Assembly: GCA_964512285.1 (NCBI GenBank)
Contig: CAZEJO010000002.1
Span: 32,392-96,391, forward strand
Direction of reading: 5' to 3'
Source: an uncultured Dehalococcoidia bacterium
Lineage (GTDB): Bacteria > Chloroflexota > Dehalococcoidia > SM23-28-2
DNA length: 64,000 nt
The translations under genes and the position numbers were made by a program. Under the pieces are notes generated by a model. It saw only the letters and a program-made list of their open reading frames with translations, did not search any database and was not told the origin of the DNA. Shown here one piece after another: positions 22,108 to 47,925 of this stretch (the stretch's first letter is position 1; each line of letters starts with the position of its first letter).

Positions 22108-22347
22108 ATGCACGAGCTAGCGGCAGCCCAGGATGTCGTCAAGACTGCCCTGGCGACAGCCGAAGCGGAGGGCGCCAAGAGAATAGTAGCCATTGTCCTC
22201 GAGATTGGTGACCTTTACGGGGTTGACCAGATGCGAGAACTCATCGCGATGGAGGCGAAGGGGACAATAGCCGAGGGGGCCCGCTTGGACATCGAATCCG
22301 TGGCTGGTCCTAACATCCGGGTTGAGAGCATAGAGGTAGAACAGTAG
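22108..22347 (+). CDS. hypA: HypA-like [NiFe]-hydrogenase nickel chaperone lacking the zinc-finger module (79 aa, no cysteines).
   Basis: N-terminal MHE Ni-binding motif (MHELAAAQ...KRIVAIVLEIGDLYGV) and C-terminal strand IRVESIEVEQ match HypA. The ~35-aa CxxC...CxxC insert is absent. First gene of the hypFCDE cluster. Confidence 0.6.
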   Translation: MHELAAAQDVVKTALATAEAEGAKRIVAIVLEIGDLYGVDQMRELIAMEAKGTIAEGARLDIESVAGPNIRVESIEVEQ

Positions 22348-22353
22348 GTTGCC

Positions 22354-24663
22354 GTGGCTATCAGGGCGCAGGTGGTGGTGCGAGGGATCGTTCAGGGGGT
22401 TGGCTTCCGTCCCTTCGTCTATCGCCTCGCCCAAGAGCACCAGCTTAGCGGCTGGGTCCTCAACTCCACTCAGGGCGTGGTCATCGAGGTGGAGGGGCCG
22501 CAGCAACGAATAGCTGGCTTTATCGCCGGGCTCAAGGCCGATCCCCCTCCCCAGGCCGTCATCGAAAGAGTAGAGACCAACCTCCTTCCGCCTGTTGGCT
22601 ACTCGTCCTTCATCGTCGAGGCCAGCCGCGAGGGCGATGAGTTCGTCCTGATCTCCCCCGACATTTGCATCTGCGCCGACTGCCTCAATGAGCTCCGGAA
22701 CTCCCACGACCGCCGTTGGGCCTATCCCTTCATAAACTGCACCAACTGCGGCCCCCGCTTCACCATCATCAGCGACATCCCCTACGACCGACCCAAGACG
22801 ACAATGAGCGCCTTCACCATGTGTCCTCGCTGCGATGAGGAGTACCACAACCCCGCTGACAGGCGCTTCCACGCTCAGCCCAACGCCTGCGCCCTGTGCG
22901 GCCCCCGGCTGGAGCTGGCGACGAATGGCACTCGCCCCGCTGAAGCGCCGCCGCGAGAAGAGCCCATCGAGAGCGTCCGTCGCCTGCTGACGGAGGGGGC
23001 GATTGTGGCGGCGAAAGGGCTGGGGGGCTTCCACCTGGCCTGCGATGCCACGAATGCGGGCGCGGTGGCAACCCTGCGCGAGCGCAAGCAGCGCGTGGAC
23101 AAGCCCTTCGCCGTCATGTCCCTGGACGTGGACACCGTCCGCCGCTACTGCGAGGTCAGTGAAGGCGAGGCTCAGCTCCTCGAGTCGCCGGCGCGGCCCA
23201 TCGTGCTCCTGCGACGCAAGCCGGGCTCGCCCATCGCCGCTGAGGCAGCCCCCGCCAACAATAACCTGGGGGTCATGCTGCCCTACACGCCCCTGCACTA
23301 CCTCCTGCTGAGCGATGGCGCGACACCCGCGCCTCTGGCCCTGGTGATGACCAGCGGCAACATGAGCGAGGAGCCTATCGCCATTGGCAACCAGGAGGCG
23401 CTGGAGCGCCTGAGCCCCCTGGCCGACTACTTCCTTCTCCACGACCGCGATATCTACGTCCGCTGCGACGACTCAGTCACCCGCCTCTTTCGAGGCAGAG
23501 AGGCGATGCTCCGCCGCTCCCGCGGCTACGCGCCCTTCCCCGTCCGCCTGAACCTGGAGCTGAAGGAGATCCTGGCCTGCGGAGCTGATCTCAAGAACAC
23601 CTTCTGCCTCACCAAGGGCACCTATGCCTTCCTCAGCCAGCACATCGGCGACATGGAGAACTACGAGACCTTCGCCGGCTATCAAGCGGCCATCGAGCAC
23701 TTCCAGCGGCTCTTTCGGGTGAACCCGCGGGCGGTGGCCTATGACCTTCACCCCGATTATCTGGCCACCCGCTACGCCCTGGAGCTCGCGGAGACCCAGG
23801 GCTTACGGCTGGTGCCCGTGCAGCACCACCACGCCCACGTTGTGAGCTGCATGGCCGAGAACGGCGTGGACGGAGAGGTCATCGGCGTGGCCCTCGACGG
23901 CACCGGCTACGGCACGGACGGCCACATCTGGGGCGGCGAGTTCCTCCTGGCCGACTGCCGCCGCTTTCGCCGCCTAGGTCACCTCAAGTATGTGCCCCTG
24001 CCCGGCGGCGATGCAGCCACCAAACGGCCCTACCGTATGGCAGTAAGCCATCTTCTGAGCGCCTTCGGTGAGGAGGCCCTGGACCTGCCGCTGGAGCTGT
24101 GGAAGCAAATCGAACCGCCGGAGCTGGCCCTGATACGCCGCATGATGGCGGCGAAAGTGAACTGCCCTCTCACCTCTAGCTGCGGCCGCCTGTTCGACGC
24201 CGTATCGGCCCTGCTGGGCGTGCGCGGCGTGGTCAACTACGAAGGGCAGGCGGCCATCGAGCTGGAGATGCTGACCGCCGAAGGCGTGGATGAAGTCTAC
24301 GACTGGAGCCCACCTTCAAGCTATCCTATAATTATTGATCCGGCGCCTGTGCTGCAGGGAGTGGTTTCGGACCTGAGGCGAGGGGTGGATCGAGCTGTGA
24401 TCTCGGCCAAGTTCCACAACACCATCGCCGACGTCATTGTCGGCGTGAGCCGGGTTGCCAGAGAAAGGACGGGCATCAACCGAGTGGCCCTTAGCGGCGG
24501 CGTATTCCAGAATATGTACCTTCTTGGCCGCACCCTGGACGGACTGGAGAGCCGGGGCTTCGAGGCCCTCATCCACCACCAGGTGCCCACCAACGACGGC
24601 GGCATCGCCCTCGGCCAGGCGGTGATCGCCAACGCCCGTCTGTCACGGAGGAAGAAGCGCTAG
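22354..24663 (+). CDS. hypF: Carbamoyltransferase HypF ([NiFe] hydrogenase maturation).
   Basis: Acylphosphatase domain (VRGIVQGVGFRPFVYRLA), two CxxC-X18-CxxC zinc fingers, YrdC and Kae1-like domains; 769 aa. Confidence 0.9.
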   Translation: MAIRAQVVVRGIVQGVGFRPFVYRLAQEHQLSGWVLNSTQGVVIEVEGPQQRIAGFIAGLKADPPPQAVIERVETNLLPPVGYSSFIVEASREGDEFVLISPDICICADCLNELRNSHDRRWAYPFINCTNCGPRFTIISDIPYDRPKTTMSAFTMCPRCDEEYHNPADRRFHAQPNACALCGPRLELATNGTRPAEAPPREEPIESVRRLLTEGAIVAAKGLGGFHLACDATNAGAVATLRERKQRVDKPFAVMSLDVDTVRRYCEVSEGEAQLLESPARPIVLLRRKPGSPIAAEAAPANNNLGVMLPYTPLHYLLLSDGATPAPLALVMTSGNMSEEPIAIGNQEALERLSPLADYFLLHDRDIYVRCDDSVTRLFRGREAMLRRSRGYAPFPVRLNLELKEILACGADLKNTFCLTKGTYAFLSQHIGDMENYETFAGYQAAIEHFQRLFRVNPRAVAYDLHPDYLATRYALELAETQGLRLVPVQHHHAHVVSCMAENGVDGEVIGVALDGTGYGTDGHIWGGEFLLADCRRFRRLGHLKYVPLPGGDAATKRPYRMAVSHLLSAFGEEALDLPLELWKQIEPPELALIRRMMAAKVNCPLTSSCGRLFDAVSALLGVRGVVNYEGQAAIELEMLTAEGVDEVYDWSPPSSYPIIIDPAPVLQGVVSDLRRGVDRAVISAKFHNTIADVIVGVSRVARERTGINRVALSGGVFQNMYLLGRTLDGLESRGFEALIHHQVPTNDGGIALGQAVIANARLSRRKKR

Positions 24664-24665
24664 CC

Positions 24666-24896
24666 ATGTGCCTGGCCATACCGGCGCGGGTTGTCCAGAT
24701 CGACGAAGGTCTAGGCCTGGTGGAGCTAGGGGGAGTCGTGCGTGAAGCGAGCTTCATGCTCCTGCCCGATGCCCAGGTGGGCGACTACGTTCTCCTCCAC
24801 GCTGGCTACGCCCTCCAGAAAGTGGACGAGGCGGAGGCCGAGGAGACCATCCGTCTGTTGACCGAGCTGGCCGAGGACGGGAGGGCAGAAGCATAG
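24666..24896 (+). CDS. hypC: Hydrogenase maturation factor HypC.
   Basis: N-terminal MCLAIP motif; 76 aa. Confidence 0.85.
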   Translation: MCLAIPARVVQIDEGLGLVELGGVVREASFMLLPDAQVGDYVLLHAGYALQKVDEAEAEETIRLLTELAEDGRAEA

Positions 24897-25984
24897 TGGT
24901 GCGCTACGTGCGCGAGTTCCACGATCCTGCCGCCGCCCGCGGGCTGGCGGCGACGATCGAGCGCATAACCAACCGCTCGGTGAACCTGATGGAGGTATGT
25001 GGCACTCATACCGTGACCATCTTCCGCCACGGCATTCGCCAGCTCCTGCCGCCGCCGCTGAGCATGCTCTCGGGGCCCGGCTGCCCAGTCTGCGTCACCA
25101 CCAACGCCGATATCGACAAGGCCATCGCCCTGGCCGAGCAGTCGAAGGTAACCCTGGCCACCTTCGGCGACATGATGAAGGTGCCGGGGAGCTACCAGAG
25201 CCTCCAGCAGGTCAAGGCCGATGGCAGCGACGTGCGGGTCGTCTATTCTCCTCGCGATGCCGTCTGCATGGCCCGCGACAACCCCCGCCAGCCCGTCATA
25301 TTCTTCGCCGTGGGGTTCGAGACCACCGTCCCCACCATCGCCGCCGCGCTCCTGGAGGCCGAAGCGCTGGGGCTCAAGAACTTCTACCTGATCTCCGTGC
25401 ACAAGCTCATCCCGCCCGCCATGCTCGCTCTACTGGAGGCGCGGGAGGTGCGCATCGACGGCTTCATCTGCCCCGGCCACGTGAGCGTGGTCATCGGCTC
25501 GCAGCCCTACGAGTTCATCCCCCAACAGTACGGCGTTCCCTGCGTGATCACCGGCTTCGAGCCGTTGGACGTCCTCCAGGGCATCGAGATGCTGCTGCGC
25601 CAGATCGCCGAGGGCAGAGCAGAGGTGGAGATCCAGTATCGCCGAGGGGTGCGGCCGGAGGGTAATCCCCTGGCGCGCGAGCTAGTATCGCGGGCGTTCG
25701 AGACCAGCGACGCCGACTGGCGCGGGCTGGGCTGCATCCCCAACAGCGGGCTGAAGCTGCGAGCGGAGTACAAGCGCTTCGACGCCGAGCAGGCCTTCGC
25801 CATCAACCCTCCGCCCACCAAGGAGCACAAGGGCTGCCTCTGCGGCGATATCCTGCGGGGAGTCAAGACGCCGCCGGAGTGCCCCCTGTTCGCCGAAACC
25901 TGCACCCCCGAGAGGCCGGTAGGCCCCTGCATGGTCTCCAGCGAGGGCACCTGCGCCGGCTGGTATCAATACGGGTCGCGCTAA
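24896..25984 (+). CDS. hypD: Hydrogenase maturation factor HypD.
   Basis: CGTH, GPGCPVC and FETT motifs; C-terminal CxxC cluster; 362 aa. Confidence 0.9.
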   Translation: MVRYVREFHDPAAARGLAATIERITNRSVNLMEVCGTHTVTIFRHGIRQLLPPPLSMLSGPGCPVCVTTNADIDKAIALAEQSKVTLATFGDMMKVPGSYQSLQQVKADGSDVRVVYSPRDAVCMARDNPRQPVIFFAVGFETTVPTIAAALLEAEALGLKNFYLISVHKLIPPAMLALLEAREVRIDGFICPGHVSVVIGSQPYEFIPQQYGVPCVITGFEPLDVLQGIEMLLRQIAEGRAEVEIQYRRGVRPEGNPLARELVSRAFETSDADWRGLGCIPNSGLKLRAEYKRFDAEQAFAINPPPTKEHKGCLCGDILRGVKTPPECPLFAETCTPERPVGPCMVSSEGTCAGWYQYGSR

Positions 25985-25992
25985 GGAAGGCT

Positions 25993-27033
25993 ATGGCAAA
26001 GAGAAACGTGGCAGGAACCAGCAAGATCCTCCTGGCTCATGGCAGCGGCGGCCGCCTCAGCCACGAGCTGGTGGCCAAGGAGTTCGTTCCGCCCTGGGCC
26101 AACCCCATCCTCGACCAGCTCAACGACTCGGCCGTGTTCGCCTTGAGCCCGGATGGCACCGGCCCCCGCCTAGCTTTCACCACCGACTCCTACGTGGTGA
26201 AGCCCCTCTTCTTCAAAGGGGGCGACATCGGCCGCCTGGCGGTCTGCGGCACAGTCAACGACCTGGCCATGGTGGGAGCGAAGCCCCTGTACCTTTCGGC
26301 CAGCTTCGTCATCGAGGAGGGGCTGTCCCTGGCCAACATGAGAGCAGTGGTGAAGTCGATGCGCCAGGCGGCGGCTGAGGCGGGCGTGCAGATCGTGACC
26401 GGCGATACGAAGGTGGTGGAGGGAGGCGCCGCCGACGGCCTCTTCGTCAACACCGCCGGCCTGGGCCTGGTGCCGCCTGGGGTAGAGATCGGCGGCAGCA
26501 GGGCCCGCGTGGGCGACGCGATCATCCTCTCGGGCAGTATCGGCGACCACGGCATCGCCGTGATCTCTCAGCGGGAGGGACTGGAGTTCGAGGCGCCGGT
26601 GGACAGCGACGTCGCCCCCCTGAACGGTCTGGTGGCAGCCATGCTGGCGGTCAGCACCAACGTCCGCGTTCTGCGCGACCCCACTCGTGGCGGCCTGGCA
26701 ACCTCCCTCAACGAGATAGCCCAGCAGTCCGGGGTTGGCATCCAGATCGATGAACCAACGATCCCAGTCAAGGATGGCGTATGGGGTGCCTGCGAGATGC
26801 TGGGCTTCGACCCCCTGTACGTGGCCAACGAAGGCAAGCTGGTCACTATCGTCGAGCCTAAAGACGCTGAAAGAATCCTGAGCGTTATGCGAAAGACAAA
26901 GTATGGTGAAGAGGCAGCGATCATCGGGGAGGTAGTCGCCGAGCCGCAGGGCAAGGTTCTGATGAAGACAACTATCGGCGGCACGCGCATCGTCCACATG
27001 CTGGTGGGCGAGATGCTGCCGCGTATCTGTTGA
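25993..27033 (+). CDS. hypE: Hydrogenase maturation factor HypE (carbamoyl dehydratase).
   Basis: PurM-like fold; MAKRNVAGTSKILLAHGSGG start (RBS AAGGAAGG). The track ORF N-extension overlaps hypD. C-terminal ...PRIC. Confidence 0.9.
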   Translation: MAKRNVAGTSKILLAHGSGGRLSHELVAKEFVPPWANPILDQLNDSAVFALSPDGTGPRLAFTTDSYVVKPLFFKGGDIGRLAVCGTVNDLAMVGAKPLYLSASFVIEEGLSLANMRAVVKSMRQAAAEAGVQIVTGDTKVVEGGAADGLFVNTAGLGLVPPGVEIGGSRARVGDAIILSGSIGDHGIAVISQREGLEFEAPVDSDVAPLNGLVAAMLAVSTNVRVLRDPTRGGLATSLNEIAQQSGVGIQIDEPTIPVKDGVWGACEMLGFDPLYVANEGKLVTIVEPKDAERILSVMRKTKYGEEAAIIGEVVAEPQGKVLMKTTIGGTRIVHMLVGEMLPRIC

Positions 27034-27042
27034 GGAGCGGCG

Positions 27043-28380
27043 ATGACAACGCGCGAGAGGGGGAACCGGGCCGATACGGCCAGGCAGGACACGGAAGAGC
27101 TAGCCGCCCTGCTGGACATGTCCATGGCCTTCGCCCAGGCTACCGACCTGGACAGGGTAATGGAGACCGTTCTTGCCCGCAGCACCGCTCTCTATGAGGC
27201 GGCCGATGCCGGCGCTCTCTTCCTCTACAACCCTGATGAGGACTGCCTGGTAGCCAGGGCCTCCATTGGCTACGAGACAGAGCCTCTCTCCCGAGTGCGA
27301 CTGAGGCCGGGAGAGGCCATCGTGGGCAAGGTCTTCAAGCACAGACGAAGCCTGCTGTGCGCCACTCCAGAGCAGATAGCGCTTAACATGGCCAACCTGC
27401 GCAAGGAGAACGAAGCTCACTTCGAAGGGGCCCGCTCCGGCATAAGCCAGCCCCGCAGCGCCATGTGCGCTCCCCTGATTGCTAAGGACTCTGTCCTGGG
27501 AGCCCTGATCCTAGTGAGCCTTCGCCGTCAGGAAGCCTCTTCTCGCCGCCAGAAAGCATTCTCTGCCACCGACCTTCACTTTCTCCAGGGAGTAGCCAAC
27601 CAGATCGCCATTGCTCTCGAGAACGCCCGTCTCTGGTCGGAGGTCTGCCGCGGTCAGGCCGTAACCGAAGCAAACCGCTTCAAAGATGAGTTTCTGGCCA
27701 GCATCTCCCACCAGCTTCTCACCCCCATCACCTCCATCAGAGCTGCCGCCGACCTGCTTAAGGCTTCGCCGACCAAGGAGAGCGAGGCAGCGGACAGCCT
27801 GATAAGCAGCATTGCCCGCAACACCCAGCGCCTTCAGGGTCTAGTGCAGGAACTGCTGGACCTAGCCCGTCTGCAAAGGGGCGAGGCCGTACTCTCACTC
27901 AAGCCCTGGGACCTGAAGACGATCGTAACGGAGAGCGCGGCAGCCATCGAACCCCTCGCCGGGGGGAAGGAACAGGCGCTGGAGGTGGAAATCCCCTCTT
28001 CTTCCTGCCCGGTGCTGGCCGACCGGGGGCGACTGGAGCAAGCGCTGATGAACCTGCTCTCCAACTCCAGCAAATTCACCCCTCGCCACGGTCACATCAG
28101 GACGACCCTCCAGGACAAGGACCGAGAGTATTTGGTGAGTGTCACCGACGATGGTCCCGGCATCCCCCAGGCTGAGCAGAATCAGATCTTCGAGCGCTTC
28201 TATTCGAACTCCCGCGCGCCAGGCGAAAAGACGGGCGCTGGCTTGGGCTTAGCCATCGCCAAGACAGTGGTGGAGCTACACGGAGGGAAAATCTGGGTGA
28301 AGAGCCAGGGCGGCCACGGCAGCACCTTCTTTTTCACCCTTCCCAAGGGGGACAGTCTTGCGGATTCTAGTCGTCGATGA
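27043..28380 (+). CDS. Cytoplasmic sensor histidine kinase with N-terminal GAF domain.
   Basis: GAF region, H-box ISHQLLTPITSIRAAADLL, HATPase_c (GAGLGLAI...GGHGSTFFFTLP). No TM segments. Confidence 0.8.
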   Translation: MTTRERGNRADTARQDTEELAALLDMSMAFAQATDLDRVMETVLARSTALYEAADAGALFLYNPDEDCLVARASIGYETEPLSRVRLRPGEAIVGKVFKHRRSLLCATPEQIALNMANLRKENEAHFEGARSGISQPRSAMCAPLIAKDSVLGALILVSLRRQEASSRRQKAFSATDLHFLQGVANQIAIALENARLWSEVCRGQAVTEANRFKDEFLASISHQLLTPITSIRAAADLLKASPTKESEAADSLISSIARNTQRLQGLVQELLDLARLQRGEAVLSLKPWDLKTIVTESAAAIEPLAGGKEQALEVEIPSSSCPVLADRGRLEQALMNLLSNSSKFTPRHGHIRTTLQDKDREYLVSVTDDGPGIPQAEQNQIFERFYSNSRAPGEKTGAGLGLAIAKTVVELHGGKIWVKSQGGHGSTFFFTLPKGDSLADSSRR

Positions 28381-29080
28381 CGAGCCCGATGTGGTAGAGG
28401 TCATCGAGCTTACCTTCAGGCTTCAGTGGCCGGGGAGCGAGGTGATAGCGGCCGCCGATGGCGAGTCGGCTCTGAAGGTCTTTCAAACAGGACAGCCGGA
28501 CGTGGTTGTCTTGGACGTAGGCCTCCCAGGGATGAGCGGCTTCGAGATCTGCCGCCGCCTGCGGGCGATCTCCGACGTGCCTATCCTCATGCTCACCGTC
28601 AGGGGCGAGGAACTGGATCGCCTCAAGGGCCTCGATCTGGGGGCCGACGATTACATCGTCAAGCCCTTCAGCCCACTGGAACTGGTGGCACGCACCCGAG
28701 CCGTGCTGCGCCGCTCCCAGATAGCGCCCATGCTAACCACCTCCCGCATCATCGTCGATGAGGAGCTTACCCTGGACTTGGACAACCGCGAGGTTATCCT
28801 CCGTGGCCAGCCAGTGAAGCTGACACCCACCGAGAGCCGCATTCTCTCTCAGCTTGTAGCCAACGCCGGCCACGTCGTCACTCAGAAGATGCTCCTAGCC
28901 AAGGTGTGGGGATGGGAAAGCGAGGATGATATGCTCATGCTCAAGGTGCATATCGCTCGCTTGCGCGAAAAATTGGACGACGATGCCTACAACCCCCGCT
29001 ACATCTTCACCGAACGAGGCCTAGGCTACCGTTTCGTCAGACCAGCCACGGTTCCCTTCCCTCCTCCTTCCTCCCCATGA
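28358..29080 (+). CDS. OmpR/PhoB-family response regulator (receiver + winged helix).
   Basis: MRILVVDDEPDV...DVGLPGMSGFEI receiver domain; C-terminal ...HIARLREKLDD...GYRF winged helix. Confidence 0.85.
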   Translation: MRILVVDDEPDVVEVIELTFRLQWPGSEVIAAADGESALKVFQTGQPDVVVLDVGLPGMSGFEICRRLRAISDVPILMLTVRGEELDRLKGLDLGADDYIVKPFSPLELVARTRAVLRRSQIAPMLTTSRIIVDEELTLDLDNREVILRGQPVKLTPTESRILSQLVANAGHVVTQKMLLAKVWGWESEDDMLMLKVHIARLREKLDDDAYNPRYIFTERGLGYRFVRPATVPFPPPSSP

Positions 29081-29103
29081 CGCCGTGCCCCTCGATTGAC
29101 AGA

Positions 29104-29144
29104 ATGTAACCTTTCTGTTACCTGGTGTAACCCGCTATGTTACC
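29104..29144 (+). promoter_or_regulatory. Four direct repeats TGTAACC / TGTTACC / TGTAACC / TGTTACC at 10-12 bp spacing (candidate OmpR-family regulator binding array) upstream of the hdr-mvh operon.
   Basis: Read from the sequence: aaTGTAACCtttcTGTTACCtggTGTAACCcgctaTGTTACC. Located 24-64 bp after the regulator stop and 85 bp before the hdrD-like start. Confidence 0.4.
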
Positions 29145-29228
29145 TCTTTCGTGTAGGATTTCCCAGGGGAACCTTAGCTGAAGGCTCAGCCGGCTCCTGT
29201 CGGCTAGAGCGGAAATGGACGGCGATAA

Positions 29229-30380
29229 ATGGTAAGACAAATTGCTAACCCCTACAAAGAGGCGGTGGACATCGTCAAGGAGATGGGGGGTGAGGCACTC
29301 AGGCTGTGCTATCAGTGCGGCCTGTGTACCGGTGCCTGCCCCTGGAATGCCTTGAAGAGCTTCCCAGTCCGCAAGCTAATCCACGAGGTGCAACTGGGGC
29401 TTGTCGACTTCGAGAGCGAGGACATGTGGACGTGCGTCACCTGTGGCAACTGCGTCCAGCAATGCCCCCGCGGCGTCGAGATCATCGACGTGATGAGGGC
29501 CATGCGCCGCACCATCGTTGGCATGGGCGTCGGGCCGGTTCCCGACTCCTTACGCGTCACCATGAAGAACCTCGCTGGCACCGGCAATCCCTGGGGTGAA
29601 CCCCCGGAGAAGCGAGCTGACTGGGCTCAAGCCCTGAATGTCAAGCCGTTCAGCAACGGCACTCAGCTTCTGTACTTCCCCTGCTGTACCACCGCCTATG
29701 ACTCGAGCGTCAGTCGCATAGGCAAGGCTACGGCGACCATTCTTCAGAAGGCAGGGATAGATTTCGGTATCCTGGGCTCCAAGGAGACCTGCTGCGGCGA
29801 GAGCGCGCGCAAGGCGGGCGACGAGGAGCTGTTCCAACGGCTGGTCCAAGAGAACACGGCCGCCTTCGCCGAAAACGGCGTCAAGAACATAGTCGTTTCC
29901 TCGCCCCACTGCTACTACACCTTCAAGAACGAATACCCCATGGCGCAGAACGGCGTCCAGGTCATGCATTCCACCCAGTTCCTGGCCGGACTCATCCGAG
30001 AGGGCAAGATAAAATTCAGCAAAGAGATAAAGAAGAAGGTCGCCTATCACGACCCCTGCTACCTGGGACGCCACAGCGGCGTCTTTGACGAGCCACGCGA
30101 GATCCTGAGCAGCATTCCCGGCCTGGAGCTGGTGGAGATGGCCAATCATCACGAGAATAGCATCTGCTGCGGTGGTGGCGGCGGCCAGGTATGGATGGAG
30201 ACCAAGCCGGGCGAGAGGCTGGCCGAGGTGCGCGCGGAGCAGGCTCTGGACGTGGGTGCTGAGGTGCTGGCTCTGGCCTGCCCCTACTGCATGCTTATGT
30301 TTGAAGGCTGCCTGACGCAGGACGTGCTGGATCGGCTGGAGTTAAGGGATATCACCGAGTTGGTTGCGGAGGCTATGTAG
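29229..30380 (+). CDS. HdrD-like iron-sulfur protein (HdrC-HdrB fusion: 2x[4Fe-4S] ferredoxin motifs + two CCG domains), soluble.
   Basis: CYQCGLCTGACP and CVTCGNCVQQCP motifs. CCG domains CCTTAYD...CCGESARK and DPCYLGRH...CCGGGGG...CPYCMLMFEGC. Confidence 0.75.
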   Translation: MVRQIANPYKEAVDIVKEMGGEALRLCYQCGLCTGACPWNALKSFPVRKLIHEVQLGLVDFESEDMWTCVTCGNCVQQCPRGVEIIDVMRAMRRTIVGMGVGPVPDSLRVTMKNLAGTGNPWGEPPEKRADWAQALNVKPFSNGTQLLYFPCCTTAYDSSVSRIGKATATILQKAGIDFGILGSKETCCGESARKAGDEELFQRLVQENTAAFAENGVKNIVVSSPHCYYTFKNEYPMAQNGVQVMHSTQFLAGLIREGKIKFSKEIKKKVAYHDPCYLGRHSGVFDEPREILSSIPGLELVEMANHHENSICCGGGGGQVWMETKPGERLAEVRAEQALDVGAEVLALACPYCMLMFEGCLTQDVLDRLELRDITELVAEAM

Positions 30381-30382
30381 CC

Positions 30383-32365
30383 ATGGAAGAACCAAGGATC
30401 GGCGTATTTGTCTGCCACTGCGGGAGCAACATTGCGGACACCGTAGATGTTGACGAGGTGAGGGAGTTCGCCAGCGGCCTGCCCGGGGTTGCGTCAGCCC
30501 TGGACTATAAGTTCATGTGCTCCGAGCCCGGACAGCTCCTAATCAAGGAGAACATAGAGAAGCTGCATCTCAATCGGGTGGTGGTGGCTTCCTGTTCCCC
30601 CCGCATGCACGAGATTACCTTTCGCAAGGCCGTGGCTGAGGCGGGGATGAACCCCTACCTCTTTCAGATGGCCAACATCCGCGAGCATGATTCCTGGGTC
30701 CACAAGGACGGCGCCACTGAGAAGGCCAAAGCCCTGATCCACGCCGCCGTCGAGAGGGCTAGCGTGCTGGAGCCTCTGGAGAGAAAGGAAGTGCCGGTAA
30801 CTCCCACTGTGTTGATAGTGGGTGCCGGCATTGCCGGCATCCAGGCGGCCCTGAACATCGCTGAATCCGATCACAAAGTCTACCTGGTGGAGCGAGAGCC
30901 CTCCGTCGGCGGCCGCATGATCCAGCTAGACAAGACCTTCCCCACTCTGGACTGCTCATCCTGCATTCTCACGCCCAAGATGGCTTCCGTCGGATCCCAT
31001 CCCAACATCGAGCTTATGACCTACAGCGAGGTGGAGGAGGTCTCCGGTTACATCGGCAACTTCAAGGTCAAGGTCAGGAAGAAGCCTCGCTACGTGGACT
31101 CAGAGCTCTGCAACGGCTGCGGCCTTTGTATGGAGAAGTGCCCCTGGAAGACGGACAGCGAGTTCGATATGGGGCTGGGCAAGCGCAAGGCGATCTACAC
31201 ACCCTTCCCCCAGGCGGTACCCAACGTGCCGGTCATCGACACGGAGACCTGCGTCTACTTCAAGAAGGGGACCTGTAGGGCCTGCGAGAAGCTCTGTCCC
31301 ACGGGAGCCATCGCCTTCGATCAGAAGGAGGAGATCGTCGAGCTAGAGGTGGGGGCGATAATCGTGGCCACCGGCTACGACCTTTTCGACCCCTCTCCTA
31401 TAACTCAATACGGCTACAAGCGCCTGGACAACGTTATCACTAGCCTGGAGTTCGAGAGGATGTGCAGCGCCACCGGCCCTACCGGCGGTGAGCTGGTGCT
31501 GAAGGATGGCAGCACTCCCCAGAGCGTGGCCATCATCCACTGCGTGGGCAGCCGCGACAAGAACTACTATGAGTACTGCTCGCGCGTCTGCTGCATGTAT
31601 GCCCTCAAATACTCCCACCTGATAAAGGAGAAGACCGAGGCAGACGTATATCAGCTCTACATCGATATGCGCTGCTACGGAAAGGGCTTCGAGGAGTTCT
31701 ATCAGCGCCTGTCCGACGAGGGCGTCAACTTCGTGCGGGGCAAGGTTGCCCAGGTCACCGACCAGGCGATAAACGATGAAGAGAAGGGCAAGCTGGTGCT
31801 GGTCAGTGAGGACACCCTCCTGGGCAGGATGGTGCGCATCCCGGTGGACATGGTCATTCTCTGTCCGGCCATGGTGCCGCGGGCCGATGTCGAGGAAGTG
31901 GCCAGGCGTTTCCTCATCAGCCGAGGCGCCGATGGGTTCTTCTTGGAGAAGCACCCCAAACTGGAGCCGGTGGCCACCGCCAGTGCTGGTGTGTTCGTGG
32001 TCGGCTGTGCCCAGGGGCCCAAGGACATCCCGGACACCGTGGCTCAGGCCTCGGCGGGGGCAGCAGAGGCCCTGTCACTAATCGACAGAGGAACAGTGGA
32101 GGTCGAGGCCGCCACTGCCGTAGTGAATGAGGAGATCTGCTCTGGCTGCAAGATCTGTCTGAACCTCTGCCCCTACAATGCCATCGCCTTCGATGAGGAG
32201 AAGAAGGTGGCCGAGATCAACGACATTCTCTGCAAGGGGTGCGGCGTTTGCGTTGCCGCCTGTCCTTCCGCCGCCATTACCGGCCGCCACTTCACCGACA
32301 AGCAGATCTTCGCCGAGATCGAGGGTCTGCTAGCGGACATCAAGCTACCCTTGGTGGCAGTTTAA
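30383..32365 (+). CDS. hdrA: Heterodisulfide reductase subunit A-like flavoprotein (HdrA).
   Basis: N-terminal VCHCGSNI motif, FAD-binding GAGIAGIQAAL, inserted and C-terminal 2x[4Fe-4S] ferredoxin motifs (CSGCKICLNLCP...CKGCGVCVAACP); 660 aa. Confidence 0.85.
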   Translation: MEEPRIGVFVCHCGSNIADTVDVDEVREFASGLPGVASALDYKFMCSEPGQLLIKENIEKLHLNRVVVASCSPRMHEITFRKAVAEAGMNPYLFQMANIREHDSWVHKDGATEKAKALIHAAVERASVLEPLERKEVPVTPTVLIVGAGIAGIQAALNIAESDHKVYLVEREPSVGGRMIQLDKTFPTLDCSSCILTPKMASVGSHPNIELMTYSEVEEVSGYIGNFKVKVRKKPRYVDSELCNGCGLCMEKCPWKTDSEFDMGLGKRKAIYTPFPQAVPNVPVIDTETCVYFKKGTCRACEKLCPTGAIAFDQKEEIVELEVGAIIVATGYDLFDPSPITQYGYKRLDNVITSLEFERMCSATGPTGGELVLKDGSTPQSVAIIHCVGSRDKNYYEYCSRVCCMYALKYSHLIKEKTEADVYQLYIDMRCYGKGFEEFYQRLSDEGVNFVRGKVAQVTDQAINDEEKGKLVLVSEDTLLGRMVRIPVDMVILCPAMVPRADVEEVARRFLISRGADGFFLEKHPKLEPVATASAGVFVVGCAQGPKDIPDTVAQASAGAAEALSLIDRGTVEVEAATAVVNEEICSGCKICLNLCPYNAIAFDEEKKVAEINDILCKGCGVCVAACPSAAITGRHFTDKQIFAEIEGLLADIKLPLVAV

Positions 32366-32381
32366 GGAGGCGCAGTTAGCC

Positions 32382-32858
32382 ATGGTATCGGGCAACTACG
32401 AGCCGACGATCGTAGGGTTCCTGTGTAACTGGTGCGCCTACCAAGGAGCGGACCTAGCCGGCACGGCGCGCATGGAGTACCCCCCTAACGTGCGCCCGGT
32501 GCGGGTGATGTGCACCGGCCGTATTGACCCTACCTTTATCCTGAAGGCCTTCGCCGAAGGAGCCGACGGCGTGCTGGTTGGTGGCTGCCACCCGGGCGAC
32601 TGCCACTATCTGGAGGGCAACTACAAGGCCATCCGCCGCATCACTATGGTGCGCAGGATGCTGGAACAGTTCGGAATCGAGCCCGAGCGCTTCCGCCTGG
32701 AGTGGGTCTCCGCCAGTGAAGGAGCCAAGTGGGCCAAGGTAGTGAAGGAGATGACCGAGCAGGTGAGAGCCTTGGGCCCACTCCAGTGGTGGGAGAACGT
32801 TAGGGAGGCCCAAGATGCTGAGTCTGTGGCCTTGGGCTCGGCGGAAGGCCGACGATAA
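32382..32858 (+). CDS. mvhD: MvhD (methyl-viologen-reducing hydrogenase delta subunit, [2Fe-2S]).
   Basis: GFLCNWCAYQGADLAG...VMCTGRIDP...GGCHPGDCHY signature. Confidence 0.85.
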   Translation: MVSGNYEPTIVGFLCNWCAYQGADLAGTARMEYPPNVRPVRVMCTGRIDPTFILKAFAEGADGVLVGGCHPGDCHYLEGNYKAIRRITMVRRMLEQFGIEPERFRLEWVSASEGAKWAKVVKEMTEQVRALGPLQWWENVREAQDAESVALGSAEGRR

Positions 32859-32904
32859 GGCTGAGACGAAGGCCGAGAGCTCGAGGGCATCAGGGAGGCC
32901 TAGC

Positions 32905-33909
32905 ATGGCAAAACCTAAGATGGCTCTGTATTGGGCAGCTAGCTGTGGTGGCTGTGAGATAGCTGTGGTGCGGCTGTACGAGAAGATTCTAGACGTGGCC
33001 AACACCTTCGAGATCGTTCTCTGGCCGTGCATTATGGACTTCAAGTACAAGGACGTAGAGGCGCTGCCGGAGAAGAGCATTCTGATAACTCTCTTCAATG
33101 GCGCCATCAGGAACTCCGAGCAGGAGCACATGGCCCACATGCTACGGGAGAAGTCCCAGATTCTGGTCGCCTACGGGGCCTGCTCCCACCTGGGCGGCAT
33201 CCCCGGCCTGGGCAACGTCACCAACCGCCAGGGGGTTTTCGAGAGCAGCTACCGCGAGACGCCCTCTACCGTTAACGAGGAAGGCACCTATCCTCAGCTA
33301 AGCTTCCAGGTGCCCGAGGGAGAGCTTACACTGCCCGAGTTCTACGACACTGTCCGCGCCCTCAACCAGGTAGTGCCGGTCGATTACTACATCCCCGGCT
33401 GCCCACCAACGAAGGAGCAGACGGAAGCAGTGATCCAACTGCTGGTACAGGTGGTGACAGAGGGGGCGGAACTGCCTCCAGCCGGCTCGGTGATCGGGGC
33501 ATCAGGCAAGACGGTGTGCGCTGACTGCCCTCGCACCAGGGAGGAAAAGTCGATCAAAGCCATACACCGCACCTACCAGATCATCCCCGACCCCGAGAAG
33601 TGCCTTCTGGACCAGGGCATCCTCTGTGCCGGGCCCGCCACCCGTGGCGGCTGTAGCGCGCCCTGTCCCCAGGTGAACATGCCCTGCATCGGCTGCTACG
33701 GGCCAGCGCCGGGAGCGGTGGATCAGGGAGCCAAGCTTCTGAGCGCAGTGACATCTAATATCGATTCCAAGGATCCGGAAGAGATCGAACGAATACTGGA
33801 CGGCATTCCCGACTCCATCGCCGCCTTCTACATGTTCGGCTTGCCCTCATCGCTTCTGCGCCGCCGGAAGCTGGAGCGCGAGGCAGCGACGGCCGAGGCC
33901 TCGCGGTAG
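32905..33909 (+). CDS. [NiFe]-hydrogenase small subunit, group 3 (MvhG-like).
   Basis: MAKPKMALYWAASCGGCEIAVV... (NuoB/20-kDa-like proximal cluster motif), CxxC distal cluster motifs. Proposed start at 32905 with RBS GGGAGG; the track ORF starts at 32815. Confidence 0.8.
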   Translation: MAKPKMALYWAASCGGCEIAVVRLYEKILDVANTFEIVLWPCIMDFKYKDVEALPEKSILITLFNGAIRNSEQEHMAHMLREKSQILVAYGACSHLGGIPGLGNVTNRQGVFESSYRETPSTVNEEGTYPQLSFQVPEGELTLPEFYDTVRALNQVVPVDYYIPGCPPTKEQTEAVIQLLVQVVTEGAELPPAGSVIGASGKTVCADCPRTREEKSIKAIHRTYQIIPDPEKCLLDQGILCAGPATRGGCSAPCPQVNMPCIGCYGPAPGAVDQGAKLLSAVTSNIDSKDPEEIERILDGIPDSIAAFYMFGLPSSLLRRRKLEREAATAEASR

Positions 33910-33968
33910 CGTCCAGGGCTTTCTGAGGCCGTAACGTGGAGTGACAGGGAGCGAGGAGCAAAGAAGAG

Positions 33969-35453
33969 ATGACAGAGGCTAAGGTGGAGACGCGGCGAAT
34001 AAGCATTGACCCCATCACCCGGCTGGAGGGGCACGGCCGCATCGAGATCTTCCTCAACGATGAGGGGGACGTGCAAAACGCCTACTTCCAGGTGCCGGAG
34101 CTGCGGGGATTCGAGAAGTTCTGCGAGGGGCGGCCGGTGGAAACCCTCCCCGTCATTACCGCCCGCATCTGCGGAGTGTGCCCCGAGGCCCACCACATGT
34201 GCTCCACCAAGGCCCTCGATGCAGTCTTCAAGGTGGATCCCCCCTCTGCGGCCAAGAAGCTGCGAGAGCTTCTGTATAGCGCCTTCTACGTGGCCGACCA
34301 CGCCACCCATTTCTACGCCTTAGGCGGCCCCGACTTTGTGGTGGGGCCGGACGCCCCCGCCGCCGAACGCAACATCGTCGGCGTCATCGGCAAGGTGGGC
34401 ATGGAGATCGGCGGCCAGGTGCTGAAGGCTCTGGCTGCTACCCACGAAGTGGTGGCCATGCTCGGCGGCAAGTACATCCACCCTACCTGCGGCGTGCCCG
34501 GCGGCATAAGCAAGGGCCTCACCGAAGAAGAGCGGGCCAAGGTCGAGGAGATCGCCAAGGCTGCGATAGAGTTCGGCAAGCTGACCATCAAGATCGTGGA
34601 CGACGTAGTGCTGGCCAACAAGGCCTACGTGGACATGATTCTGAGTGACACCTTCGCCCATCAGACCTACTACATGGGCCTGGTGGACGAAAACAACCAC
34701 GTGAACTTCTACGACGGCCATCTGCGGGTGGTCAACCAGCAGGGCAAGGAAGTGGCCAAGTTCCACCCGTCTCAGTACCTGGACTACATTGGCGAGCACG
34801 TGGAGCCGTGGTCGTATCTCAAGTTCCCCTTCCTCAAGAAGGTCGGCTGGAACGGCCTGACGGACGGGCCGAATAGCGGCATCTACCGGGTGGCTCCCCT
34901 GGCCCGCCTCAACGCCGCCGACGGTATGGCTACTCCCCTCGCTCAAGCGGAGTACGAGCGGTTCTACTCCACCCTGGGCGGCAAGCCCGTTCACGCTACG
35001 CTGGCCACCCACTGGGCGCGCGTTATCGAGCTGGTGTACGCCGCCGAGCGCCTGATGGAGCTGGCCACTGATCCGGAGATAACCAGCACCGACATCCGCA
35101 CCATTCCCACGGAGACTCCAGGCGAAGGCGTGGGAGTGGTGGAGGCACCGCGGGGAGTCCTCATTCACCACTACTGGGCAGACGAGAATGCCTTGGCGAA
35201 GAAGGTCAACCTGATCGTAGGAACGGGTCACAACAACGGTGCCATCGCTATGTCCATCAACAAGGCGGCTAAGGGCCTGATCAAAAAGGGCACAGTGGTC
35301 ACCGATGGTCTCCTCAACACCATCGAGATGGCATTCCGGGCCTACGACCCCTGCTTGGCCTGCGCCACCCACTCCTTGCCCGGCCAGATGCCCCTAGTCG
35401 TCAGCATCTACGACAGCCAAGGGAACCTCGTCCAGCGCCTCAGAAGGGACTAG
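33969..35453 (+). CDS. [NiFe]-hydrogenase large subunit, group 3 (MvhA-like).
   Basis: N-terminal RICGVC and C-terminal DPCLACATH Ni-Fe ligand motifs, with a 26-aa C-terminal extension for protease processing. Confidence 0.9.
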   Translation: MTEAKVETRRISIDPITRLEGHGRIEIFLNDEGDVQNAYFQVPELRGFEKFCEGRPVETLPVITARICGVCPEAHHMCSTKALDAVFKVDPPSAAKKLRELLYSAFYVADHATHFYALGGPDFVVGPDAPAAERNIVGVIGKVGMEIGGQVLKALAATHEVVAMLGGKYIHPTCGVPGGISKGLTEEERAKVEEIAKAAIEFGKLTIKIVDDVVLANKAYVDMILSDTFAHQTYYMGLVDENNHVNFYDGHLRVVNQQGKEVAKFHPSQYLDYIGEHVEPWSYLKFPFLKKVGWNGLTDGPNSGIYRVAPLARLNAADGMATPLAQAEYERFYSTLGGKPVHATLATHWARVIELVYAAERLMELATDPEITSTDIRTIPTETPGEGVGVVEAPRGVLIHHYWADENALAKKVNLIVGTGHNNGAIAMSINKAAKGLIKKGTVVTDGLLNTIEMAFRAYDPCLACATHSLPGQMPLVVSIYDSQGNLVQRLRRD

Positions 35454-35456
35454 TGA

Positions 35457-35921
35457 TTGCGGACCCTCATCCTGGGTCTTGGCAATCCTATTCTCTGCGA
35501 CGACGCCGTCGGCCTTCAGGCTGCCCGCCAGCTATATGAACTGATAGGTGAAGAGGATGTCGATCTGGTGGAGGCGGCGGTAGCGGGAATGCAGACCGTT
35601 CAGCTTCTCTCTGGCTACGACCGGGCGGTGGTCATCGATGTGGTGCCAGACGAGACGAGAGTGGGCGAGGTCTGGCGCCTCGACACCGACGAGCTGGAAG
35701 ACGTCTCCTCAACATCCAGTCATGGCATCGGCCTGGGGCAGGCCCTGCGCCTGGCCCGGCTGATGGGCCTGCCCGTCCCTGAGCAGATCCTCATCTATGC
35801 TATCGCTGCTGCCGATACCCAGACCTTCGGCGAGACCCTGACGCCTAAGCTCGCGAAAGCCCTCCCCACCATCGTCCGCAGGATCGCCGCCGACCTGGAC
35901 CGCCCCCCGGACCAGGGCTAA
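35457..35921 (+). CDS. Hydrogenase maturation endopeptidase (HycI/FrhD family).
   Basis: MRTLILGLGNPILCDDAVG motif; 154 aa; directly follows the large subunit. Confidence 0.8.
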   Translation: MRTLILGLGNPILCDDAVGLQAARQLYELIGEEDVDLVEAAVAGMQTVQLLSGYDRAVVIDVVPDETRVGEVWRLDTDELEDVSSTSSHGIGLGQALRLARLMGLPVPEQILIYAIAAADTQTFGETLTPKLAKALPTIVRRIAADLDRPPDQG

Positions 35922-36050
35922 TCGTTAACCGCCTCAGATTCGAGAACCCGGGGCAAAGCCAGCGTGGATTTCGAGGGTCTGCAGGCGCCAGGGTTGGCAA
36001 GGAGAGAGCCTGGCGGCACCCCAACAGCCCTAATCCGCAACTGCTTGGGC

Positions 36051-36059
36051 TGGTATAAT
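36051..36059 (+). promoter_or_regulatory. Extended -10 element TGgTATAAT upstream of the 36146 ORF.
   Basis: Read from the sequence; no good -35. Confidence 0.25.
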
Positions 36060-36145
36060 ACTGAAAGCAGCCATCGGGCGCAGCGGCACTTCTCGCGCGC
36101 CCTTCGTGCAGCAAGCGTTGCAGTCCATAAACAGAAGGCCAAACG

Positions 36146-36844
36146 ATGACGTGGGATGACGAGGTCGAAAAGCACCCGCACGATGTCTCCTCATTCGACT
36201 TCAGGGTCATCGAGGCGGACAAAGCATCGGCGAAAGACCTCGAAGCCATCTCCTCCCTCTTCGAGATGAACTATCGCCAGGCCAACCGCGCCTATCTGGA
36301 GAAGTCGCTCGGAACGCTGCGACACCTCGCCCTGGCCAAGCACGAGGGCACAACGGTCGGCTTCGCTCTCGGCGACTCCCGGAGCATGGACCTGCCGCGC
36401 CTACCCGGACAGGTGGTCAACCTCGCCGGCATCTGCTGCATCGCACCCCAATTCCGGCGGCGAGGCCTCTTCGCCGGCCTAGAGTACCGCATCTTCTTGG
36501 CCGTCGACATGCCAGCGCATTCACGCCGGCTGACTTGCGGACGCATGGCTCACCCCGCCGGCATGCGAGGGCTTACCCGTATCCCGACGGTGGTCCCCAA
36601 GCCGGGAGTGCGACCGACACCCTGGCAGCAGGAGGTTGGTCAAGCCATCGCCGATGCCTTCGGCAGTCACGCATTCGACCCGGAGACGTTCGTCTGCATC
36701 GGATCGGGCGAGCCCATCGGCTACCCGATCATCGAGTTCCAGGTGGAGCCGATAGAGTGGGAGGTGTTCAGGCAGGTCAACCGGGATCGAGGCGATTCAC
36801 TGCTGGCCATGGCCTGGACACCGGACGCCCCGCCGGGCTGGTAG
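36146..36844 (+). CDS. Hypothetical protein, weakly GNAT-acyltransferase-like.
   Basis: No strong motif. Central ...GTTVGFALGD...RRRGLFAGLEY has an acetyltransferase-like feel. Confidence 0.3.
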   Translation: MTWDDEVEKHPHDVSSFDFRVIEADKASAKDLEAISSLFEMNYRQANRAYLEKSLGTLRHLALAKHEGTTVGFALGDSRSMDLPRLPGQVVNLAGICCIAPQFRRRGLFAGLEYRIFLAVDMPAHSRRLTCGRMAHPAGMRGLTRIPTVVPKPGVRPTPWQQEVGQAIADAFGSHAFDPETFVCIGSGEPIGYPIIEFQVEPIEWEVFRQVNRDRGDSLLAMAWTPDAPPGW

Positions 36845-44028: not shown

Positions 44029-44538
44029 TTAAGATACTGAGTCGTTAGGGTCGCACCGAAGGTCTTCAAGCACACGCTCCACCACTTCACGCGCTGCCTT
44101 CTCAACCTCCGGGGAGAGCCCTAGGCCAGCCTCGAAGGTCTTCCCTTCAACGCCGTAGACAACAAGCCGCGGCGGAAGCCGGCCGAGCGCCCGCGCAAGT
44201 TCGATGGCCTCAGCAGTGCTAAAGGCGTGAGTGGAGCAATGGGAAAACTCTGTCGGGATGGGCTGCCTGTGGGCATCGAGCCGGTGAAGGATTCCCGGTT
44301 CTGCGCCGGAATGAACCGCATCGATCAGGATAACTGCATCAGCATCCTTCCACGACTCCATCAATGCCGTGCCCTCGCTGCTCTCCTCCAGAACCCGCAC
44401 ATGCTCAGGCGCCCGTTCTCTCAGGCATCGAGCAACGATGAGTCCCACCGCATCATCGTGCCGGTACCGATTGCCGAGGCCGATGACGAGCGTGCCCGAT
44501 CTGCCAGGCGGCATGGCGATTCCTTCAGTCCCGTTCAA
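44029..44538 (-). CDS. Hydrogenase maturation endopeptidase (HoxW/HyaD family), second copy.
   Basis: [16 protein letters not shown]...HSGAEPG motifs. A possible alternative start (44514) would avoid the 14-bp overlap with hydA. Confidence 0.75.
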
Positions 44539-45814
44539 TATGGAGCTTCAAGAAGTGCGCGGAGCAAGAGATGCACGGGTCGTAGTTGCGTATCACCTGC
44601 TCGCACTGCCACGTGAGCTGGTCAGACGGCAGATCCATGTGCTTCGGGACGAACTGCCAGAGGTCGCTTTCGACGCTCTTCTGATTCTGGGAGGTCGGCG
44701 CAACGATCTTCGCGTCGAGGATCACTCCCTGATCATCAACACGGTAGCGATGGTACAAACTGCCGCGCGGCGCCTCGGTGCAGCCGTAGCACGTGGCAGC
44801 GCGCGGCTGAACCTCCACAGCTGGTTTCTCCGGCATCTCGTATTCATCAATGATGCGCAGTGCCTCGTCATAGGCGTAAAGAGTCTCCACACTGCGCACA
44901 ATGATGCTCTTGAACTGATTGCGACAGACGGGCCCAAGCCCGGCATCGCGGGCGGCCTGTTGCGCCAGTGGAGAAAGCTTGTCGAAGTTCAGGTTGTAGC
45001 GCGCCAGGGGACCGACAAGGTAGCTGCCGCGTTCCTTGAGCACAGAGTGCAACGCATTGGTATACGGCACGTGCTCTTCGACGAAGTGGTCATCGTATTC
45101 GCTAAGGGCGATGTCCAACCCCTTGTTGGAAACAAGTCGGCCTTCGGTGATGGCGTATTCGTCTGGGTGGCGCAGGGCGACGAACTCGTAGTCCTGCTCA
45201 AAGTCCGGAAAGGGTAGCGTTGCCGTCCAGCGAACAGTCTCAAGAGCGGCATCGCGCCCCCACTTGAGTTTCTCTATGAAAGGGGCAAGCTCGCGCTTGG
45301 TCGGCGCTCTGTACAATCCACCCACGCGTATGTTGATCGGGTGAACCTCTCTGCCGCCAAGGAGTGCCATAAGCTCATTGCCCACCTTCTTCAACTGCAG
45401 CCCCTTCTGGACGACCTCGGCATGATCCTTCGCCATCTGGATGCCATCGTCGTAGCCGAGGAAGTCGGGGGCATGGAGCAAAAACACATGCAGGGCATGG
45501 CTCTCGATCCATTCACCGCAGTAGATCAGCCGGCGGAGGGCACGGATCTGGGGATCCACAGTCACCCCAAAGGCGCTCTCCATCGCATGGGCCGAGCTCA
45601 TCTGATAGGCGATAGGGCATATGCCGCAGATGCGGGCTGTGATGTCGGGTGCTTCGTTGTACTTGCGGCCGCGCAGGAAGGCCTCGAAGAGACGTGGTGG
45701 TTCCCAAATCTTGAACTTGACGTCCGTCACCGTGTTGTTGCTGATCTTCACATGCAGCGCGCCCTCGCCTTCGACGCGGGCGAGGTAGTTCACCTTTATC
45801 GTCCTACTTTTCAT
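44525..45814 (-). CDS. hydA: [NiFe]-hydrogenase large subunit, group 3b (sulfhydrogenase alpha-like).
   Basis: RICGICP and DPCISCSAH motifs; 429 aa with a short 9-aa C-terminal extension; gene order hydBGDA. Confidence 0.85.
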
Positions 45815-46583: not shown

Positions 46584-46585
46584 TG

Positions 46586-47906: not shown

Positions 47907-47925
47907 CGGTCCTTCCCCTTTTTTG

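Follow-up and report, generated by a model that had tools for sequence, protein, structure and literature searches.

A Dehalococcoidia Mvh/HdrA hydrogenase operon with a putative BamD/EMO-type partner subunit

A stretch of 64,000 nucleotides from an uncultured Dehalococcoidia bacterium (Chloroflexota) of sediment, hereafter referred to as the window, carries at positions 29229-35921 of its forward strand six tightly packed open reading frames (ORFs) for an HdrD-like Fe-S protein, an HdrA flavoprotein, the MvhD, MvhG and MvhA proteins of a [NiFe] hydrogenase and a hydrogenase maturation endopeptidase. An H2-driven, HdrA-type electron-bifurcating complex is well supported as the predicted product, because the motifs of MvhA, the Fe-S motifs of HdrA and the residues at the flavin adenine dinucleotide (FAD) site of HdrA are kept. 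The HdrD-like subunit is predicted to be a module of the BamD/EMO branch, in which the pocket for a heterodisulfide would be plugged by His227 and Trp322. With moderate confidence, we favour a soluble complex on the MvhAGD-HdrA plan that has a BamD/EMO-type outlet to a redox protein, with the electron-transfer flavoprotein (ETF) as the leading candidate. A first-pass annotation of this DNA had implied that the HdrD-like protein is the reductase for an unknown disulfide; this assignment gave way to its relation to BamD (55% identity), to EtfD (9ojn) as its best match of solved structure, and to the presence of His227 and Trp322.

Genes of the operon and its hydrogenase and HdrA modules

The six genes are listed below with their lengths in amino acids (aa) and their best family matches.

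29229..30380, + strand: HdrD-like fusion of HdrC and HdrB, soluble Fe-S protein, predicted BamD/EMO type (383 aa; Pfam CCG, E 1.8e-35)
30383..32365, + strand: HdrA flavoprotein, canonical type I (660 aa; NCBIfam HdrA2, 860 bits)
32382..32858, + strand: MvhD adaptor, predicted [2Fe-2S], Cys 15, 18, 44, 69 and 74 (FlpD, E 2.7e-58; VhuD, 143 bits)
32905..33909 (start probable; ORF open from 32815), + strand: MvhG small subunit (334 aa; VhuG, 212 bits)
33969..35453, + strand: MvhA [NiFe] large subunit (494 aa; VhuA, 404 bits)
35457..35921, + strand: hydrogenase maturation endopeptidase (154 aa, TTG start; TIGR00072, E 3.7e-29)

The ORFs, the domain matches, the tight spacing and the synteny confirmed the six-gene operon where the first-pass annotation had placed it. 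The genes are separated by 2, 16, 46, 59 and 3 nt, respectively, and gaps of this size fit a single operon. The start of mvhG at 32905 is a probable one: GGGAGG lies 6 nt 5′ of it, the VhuG match begins at residue 33 of the ORF, and related proteins have a length of 338 aa. The order hypAFCDE-hdrD-hdrA-mvhDGA-protease is common to two related loci, L082 and L083, of which the HdrD-like protein is 77% identical to that of the window, and the order hdrD-hdrA-mvhDGA is also present in locus L003. This recurrence of the gene order showed that the cluster is real and conserved, and not a chance arrangement. The bacterial origin proposed for it was likewise substantiated, as the 90% cluster mates of both MvhA and HdrA are named Dehalococcoidia, those of HdrA being titled "heterodisulfide reductase subunit A", and a 93%-identical cluster of the HdrD-like protein includes UCH87474.1, "(Fe-S)-binding protein [Dehalococcoidia bacterium]". 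Because neither a twin-arginine translocation (Tat) signal nor a transmembrane segment was detected in any subunit by sequence scan, the complex is predicted to be cytoplasmic and soluble.

MvhA has been delineated by the motifs ICGxCxxxH and AYDPCxxCATH (Poudel et al. 2018, PMC6085437), and both are present in the large subunit of the window, where the L1 motif reads RICGVCPEAHH (66-76) and the L2 motif reads AYDPCLACATH, ending with H468. The 26-aa C-terminal extension past H468 is matched by the protease gene downstream. Of the NCBIfam models, VhuA scored 404 bits, compared with 179 bits for NiFeSe, 161 for the 3b-type ShyA and 141 for the 3a-type FrhA. Similarly, the MvhA/VhuA chains in the PDB reached 395, 369 and 360 bits, while the group 3d HoxH reached 329, group 1 enzymes at most 131 and group 3a enzymes at most 113 bits. 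The context was that of an Mvh-type enzyme as well, with an MvhG that lacks an export signal, an adjacent MvhD, and hdrA immediately upstream of mvhD. By motif, best family and context, the earlier designation as an Mvh-type hydrogenase, probably of group 3c, was supported. The top PDB match of MvhA was the bifurcating NiFe-HydL of A. mobile (7t2r_D), which at 405 bits scored slightly above the MvhA chains, and in view of this near tie with a Bfu-type HydL the formal subgroup placement is provisional. Functionally, the hydrogenase is Mvh-type, because MvhD and HdrA are encoded in the operon and HydABC-like proteins are not. The reading as a Bfu-type NiFe-HydABCSL enzyme, which was prompted by the match to 7t2r_D, was rejected on the same grounds, with neither HydABC- nor NuoEF-like genes in the operon. 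A methylene-tetrahydrofolate reductase of the MetFV-Hdr-MvhD kind was also rejected, since neither metF nor metV was found nearby in the window.

Residues 1-650 of HdrA aligned with solved HdrA chains (8rvu_a, 780 bits; 5odc_A, 760 bits) at an overall identity of ~60%. The protein consists of an N-terminal Fe-S domain, a TrxR-like FAD domain (GAGIAG at 147), and inserted and C-terminal ferredoxin domains. It retains CHC, C46, C71, DCSSC, CNGCGLCMEKCP, Cx7CxxCxxxCP, CVGSRD...CSRVCC and two C-terminal CxxCxxCxxxCP motifs. The cysteine motifs of all six [4Fe-4S] clusters are therefore kept, one of them, Cx7CxxCxxxCP, with a five-residue insertion. At the site of FAD N5, E358 (LEFER) and K409 (CCMYALK) align with E356 and K409 of 5odc_A, the pair of residues that has been proposed, from the HdrA of M. 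thermolithotrophicus, to mark a bifurcating HdrA (PMC12054007). The first-pass annotation had expected HdrA to keep these residues, and had named their loss, or a large subunit outside groups 3c and 3d, as findings that would speak against it; we observed neither.

These same features bear on the possibility that the enzyme is a hydrogenase without bifurcation, in which the electrons from H2 would pass through HdrA and the HdrD-like protein to one acceptor, with no coupled reduction of ferredoxin. Bifurcation is biochemically unproven for any bacterial Mvh-HdrA complex, and some HdrA homologues do not bifurcate. In the window, however, E358 and K409 are present, both ferredoxin domains of the low-potential exit are intact, and HdrA is ~60% identical to the solved bifurcating HdrA, all of which makes such a hydrogenase very improbable.

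Taken as a whole, the operon resembles that of the methanogen MvhAGD-HdrABC complex (M. thermolithotrophicus, 5ODC) in its cofactor motifs, FAD-site residues, gene adjacency and predicted cytoplasmic location. MvhA (395 bits) and HdrA (760 bits) match their counterparts in that complex, the latter over the full length, and MvhG and MvhD are clear homologues. In contrast to the methanogen complex, one protein of 383 aa stands here for HdrB and HdrC together, and its match to HdrB has an E-value of only ~1e-5. The hosts differ as well, the present one being a Dehalococcoidia bacterium, which is not known to make coenzyme M (CoM) or coenzyme B (CoB).

Family and pocket residues of the HdrD-like subunit

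As had been proposed, the first gene encodes a soluble protein in which an HdrC-like and an HdrB-like part are fused. The HdrD-like protein has two cubane motifs of the form CxxCxxCxxxCP (C27-C37 and C69-C79), an N-terminal CCG region (C152, C153, C188, C189 and S225-P-H227-C228) and a complete C-terminal CCG with five cysteines (C277, C313, C314, C351 and C354). It further contains W322 and Y353. Among solved structures, its closest relative is EtfD of M. smegmatis (9ojn; 229 bits; Foldseek E 3.4e-20, 36% identity), whereas HdrB chains match only at E 1e-5 to 1e-4 and HdrC aligns over the ferredoxin part only. The family is a large one, comprising at least 5,875 proteins at E <= 1e-20 among 8,000 scored candidates, with its top matches in Chloroflexota and Dehalococcoidia.

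Another close relative is BamD from the benzoyl-CoA reductase of class II (BCRII), the BamBCDEFGHI complex of Geobacter metallireducens. The residues of BamD were compared through the sequence from a Geobacter metagenome-assembled genome (locus L012), to which the HdrD-like protein is 54.8% identical over 378 aa. We verified that L012 is a genuine bam cluster, with bamB (AOR-like), bamC, bamD, bamE (a fused double HdrA of 1018 aa), bamF (MvhD-like), bamG (NuoE) and bamH (NuoF). Among reference-genome loci, the 80 nearest to the HdrD-like protein include 44 clusters that contain BamB. The window protein and BamD agree in length, in domain plan and in the SSPH motif, and the spacing of H227, W322 and Y353 (95 + 31 residues) equals that of His230, Trp325 and Tyr356 in BamD, with no indels relative to the Geobacter protein. 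In addition, both genes are located directly upstream of those for an HdrA-type flavoprotein and an MvhD-type adaptor. The systems differ in that a canonical single HdrA of 660 aa takes the place of the fused double-HdrA BamE (~1018 aa), that neither a tungsten (AOR-like) BamB/BamC module nor BamGHI/NuoEF-like genes are present in the operon, and that a [NiFe] hydrogenase would be the donor.

The pocket residues separate this protein from HdrB. In the HdrB proteins of three methanogens, C78-N-G-C81 occupies the positions of S225-P-H227-C228, an Ala is found at the position of W322 and a Phe at that of Y353. At the sequence level, His227 and Trp322 thus stand where the HdrB pocket has the small residues Gly80 and Ala, and the N-terminal CXXC, which would belong to the ten cysteines of the two CCG domains of a catalytic Hdr, has Ser225 in place of C78. 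Across 92 members of the family, S225, H227, W322 and Y353 hardly vary. In the BCRII preprint, His230, Trp325 and Tyr356 were described as occupying the CoM-S-S-CoB site of BamD, a Cys-to-Ser change was reported to degrade its distal cluster, and BamD was stated to pass the high-potential electron to ETF (bioRxiv 10.64898/2026.04.10.717634). A second preprint reported for EMO of S. aciditrophicus (SaEMO) that H534 fills the CoM-binding site, that the equivalent H583 of the M. smegmatis enzyme (MsEMO, 9OJN) ligates the FeS3 cluster, and that electrons are transferred between the FAD of ETF and the non-cubane clusters (bioRxiv 10.64898/2026.08.18.745454). H227 of the window protein aligns with this H583, and the Trp is kept in EMO/EtfD as well. 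Unlike EMO/EtfD, the window protein has no haem-b membrane domain, is predicted to be soluble, and would be coupled to HdrA instead of quinone; furthermore, in its first CCG the second Cys is retained, where MsEMO has T539. On these residues and family relations rests our prediction that the HdrD-like subunit is a module of the BamD/EMO branch with a plugged pocket. A structure model of the protein served for the assignment of its fold, while the plugging of the pocket is predicted from the sequence.

Members of the HdrD-like family are found beside HdrA-type proteins in combination with different donor modules. The partner is MvhDGA in the window and in L003, L055, L059 and L082-84, a GltD-like flavoprotein together with MvhDGA in L085, FdhAB and MvhD in L089, a Flx-like NAD(P)H module with MvhD in L091 and L092, and NuoF in L005 and L007; the family also occurs within the full Bam complex. 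The homologues of L085, L087, L089, L091, L092, L005 and L007, which belong to Chloroflexota and Desulfobacterota, are 56-65% identical to the window protein, and one further pairing in this group combines HdrA with a 1005-aa HdrA-like protein, a FrhB-like protein and HdrCB. Given this variety of donor modules beside an HdrD-like/HdrA core, the family appears to be a general, reusable module through which high-potential electrons leave (or enter) HdrA-based bifurcating enzymes.

The acceptor of the high-potential electron and the direction of the reaction

From gene content, motifs, conserved residues, family relations and synteny, we infer the following scheme. All proteins except the protease would assemble like MvhAGD-HdrABC. 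H2 would be oxidised at the [NiFe] site of MvhA, and the electrons would pass via the clusters of MvhG and the [2Fe-2S] cluster of MvhD to the FAD of the canonical HdrA, where they would be bifurcated. The low-potential electron would leave through the ferredoxin domains of HdrA to ferredoxin, and the high-potential electron would enter the HdrD-like subunit, where it would pass from the two cubane clusters to the two non-cubane clusters bound by CCG. With the pocket plugged by His227 and Trp322, this subunit would most likely be an outlet for electrons to a redox protein, and such a protein, for instance ETF, is a more likely acceptor than a small heterodisulfide. ETF is placed first among the candidates because of the analogy with BamD and EMO. 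A run in reverse, in which reduced ferredoxin and the reduced acceptor would yield H2, is possible.

The more specific proposal of a soluble H2:ferredoxin/ETF oxidoreductase, with the high-potential branch leading via the BamD-like subunit to ETF, or with reduced ETF and ferredoxin confurcated to H2 in reverse, is one that we advance only tentatively. An ETF pool in the host is suggested by a gene for an EMO-like protein in the window. This gene, at 60357-62510 (+), encodes a membrane-anchored HdrD-like protein of 717 aa with the architecture of EMO/EtfD/HdrF, including at least four N-terminal transmembrane segments, two cubane and two CCG motifs, CPHC, WIE and CPYC; the protein shares 36% identity with the soluble HdrD-like subunit. 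In a survey of Chloroflexi, some genomes were moreover reported to have genes for ETF and ETF-QO adjacent to HdrD/Hdr/group-3c clusters (bioRxiv 10.1101/2021.08.23.457424).

Several points weigh against an outlet of the BamD/EMO type and against ETF as its partner. The contrast at the His and Trp positions was drawn against HdrB of three methanogens only, and the pocket-blocking role of the His/Trp/Tyr residues was taken from two preprints on other proteins. Cys228 is kept, where Geobacter BamD has a Ser (SPH-S in L012 and L022), and Cys152 is added; position 152 is a Cys in the window protein and 51 other members and a Gly in 38, mostly Bam-linked, members. With C152 and C228, five cysteines remain in the N-terminal CCG region, and the distal cluster may consequently be complete and catalytic. 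The highest-scoring curated family is the thiol-reactive TfrB, although its 155 bits are far below the cut-off of 385 bits. The structure model is cluster-free and has a mean predicted local distance difference test (pLDDT) score of 71.8, with values below 50 in the ferredoxin domain and at 309-312 and 315-324, the region of the CCG and W322. The EtfA signature GISGAIQH was detected neither in the 64-kb window nor in any Mvh-linked relative locus; six of the ~90 related loci contain it, none of which is Mvh-linked. Genomic linkage thus gives no support to an ETF acceptor, and for this reason ETF is named here as a proposal. In two Bacillota loci, L068 (~9527) and L076 (~1610), etfA is located immediately upstream of a gene for a 40-42% identical HdrD-like protein, with no HdrA detected nearby, and these may be soluble pairs of ETF and an HdrD-like protein.

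Some of these points favour the proposal of genuine disulfide reduction by the HdrD-like subunit, in which H2 would reduce ferredoxin and a disulfide other than that of CoM and CoB, such as a carrier of the DsrC, TusA or persulfide type or a small thiol pair. The domain plan is indeed that of HdrC plus HdrB, the C-terminal CCG is canonical, and C152 may replace the missing equivalent of C78 while C228 is kept. TfrB is the top NCBIfam model, and since 2009 a disulfide has been the usual suggestion for the bacterial Mvh-Hdr enzymes. In addition, a YeeE/YedE-like sulfur transporter is encoded, together with a Se/S carrier and TusA, 1.5-5 kb downstream in the relatives L082 and L084 (77% identical) (L082, 14157-16724; L084, 9258-12054). 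In the window, however, sulfur-carrier genes are not conserved beside the operon. Ser225 takes the place of a cluster cysteine, the protein is far nearer to BamD (55%) and EtfD than to HdrB, and where HdrB has its Gly and Ala, this protein has His227 and Trp322, whose counterparts in BamD and EMO are reported to plug the site. We consider a disulfide reductase unlikely on balance, and retain the redox-protein outlet as the preferred reading.

The direction of the reaction was considered separately. HdrA-type modules are reversible in principle, and the same complex could confurcate electrons from reduced ferredoxin and a carrier, such as ETF reduced by acyl-CoA dehydrogenases, at HdrA to form H2. 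H2 would then be released by a soluble route, in fermentation or syntrophy, even when its pressure is low, and this would suit a lineage of anoxic estuarine or marine sediment. A group 3b hydrogenase and the EMO-like protein are also encoded in the genome and point to ETF- and H2-linked metabolism, and the HdrD-like/HdrA core is elsewhere paired with formate dehydrogenase, Flx-like and NuoF modules, a pairing that is typical of redox-balancing enzymes. On the other hand, the sequence carries no signal of direction, neither β-oxidation nor etf genes adjoin the operon, and the methanogen Mvh-Hdr runs in the direction of H2 uptake. Operation mainly towards H2 is viewed as a possible but doubtful role for the complex.

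Enzymes of this kind are already known, and their genes are routinely annotated; public annotation pipelines already name the genes of the cluster alike. The Desulfobacterium autotrophicum genome paper of 2009 described MvhA2DG-HdrA1 and the soluble HdrD1-5 and proposed H2 bifurcation (PMC2702500), a Chloroflexi/Proteobacteria clade of MvhA was described in 2018 (PMC6085437), and group 3c hydrogenases with Hdr(D), with or without ETF, were reported for Anaerolineae/Dehalococcoidia in 2021 (bioRxiv 10.1101/2021.08.23.457424). The novelty that the first-pass annotation had implied was, in view of these descriptions of bacterial Mvh-Hdr(D), overstated. The clusters of D. autotrophicum and of the Anaerolineae/Dehalococcoidia are like that of the window in having a bacterial cytoplasmic Mvh beside hdrA/mvhD and soluble HdrCB fusions, with bifurcation proposed. 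In those reports, unlike in the present analysis, the acceptor was taken to be a disulfide or was not specified, and the residues of the CCG domains were not analysed. To our knowledge, none of the reported bacterial Mvh/Hdr and Flx-Hdr enzymes has been purified. A BamD/EMO-type partner with a predicted plugged pocket was not found stated in the literature that we searched, and it would change the acceptor to be expected.

Group 3c hydrogenases beside hdr genes are among the commonest cytoplasmic hydrogenases of anoxic sediments, and the question of what accepts the high-potential electron in the bacterial ones dates from their first description in 2009. The characterised members of the BamD/EMO branch exchange electrons with ETF and do not cleave disulfides, and in this way a concrete and inexpensive question takes the place of the vague "unknown disulfide". 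The answer would extend to a large family, since Chloroflexota also combine the HdrD-like/HdrA core with modules of the formate dehydrogenase, Flx-like and NuoF kinds. If true, an H2:ferredoxin/ETF enzyme would link the acyl-CoA/ETF pool of sediment Dehalococcoidia to H2 without membrane-bound reverse electron transport.

Flanking genes and a second hydrogenase operon

Upstream of the operon lie hydrogenase maturation genes and a two-component system:

22108-22347, + strand: short hypA-like gene (79 aa)
22354-24663, + strand: hypF
24666-24896, + strand: hypC
24896-25984, + strand: hypD
25879-27033, + strand: hypE (ORF)
27043-28380, + strand: GAF-domain histidine kinase, between hypE and the hydrogenase operon
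28358-29080, + strand: OmpR-family response regulator, between hypE and the hydrogenase operon

The HypA-like ORF keeps the MHE N-terminus and lacks the C-terminal zinc-finger part; in relatives, this is a 78-aa gene (L082, 648-884; L083, 180-416). No hypB was found in the annotated parts of the window. From their position, the GAF kinase and the OmpR regulator are candidate regulators of the operon; two-component genes are absent from the matching position in L082 and L083. In a scan of 28900-36400, no site resembled a promoter, and sites resembling terminators occurred at the level expected by chance. Rfam and tRNA scans yielded only tRNA-Arg and tRNA-His, which are located far upstream of the operon. 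Downstream of the operon, the window contains an unknown ORF and genes for an ArsR protein and a CDF transporter. The 232-aa ORF just 3′ of the protease gene (36146-36844, +) and a further ORF of 784 aa (17298-19652, +) have no match in Pfam or NCBIfam.

On the reverse strand, at 44029-49140, the window carries a further operon for a cytoplasmic [NiFe] hydrogenase, which is of the group 3b or sulfhydrogenase type:

44029-44538, - strand: protease
44525-45814, - strand: large subunit (ShyA model, 282 bits)
45804-46583, - strand: small subunit
46586-47512, - strand: NAD-binding gamma subunit
47926-49140, - strand: beta subunit

This operon is followed by genes for a LuxR-type regulator and GAF/PAS sensors.

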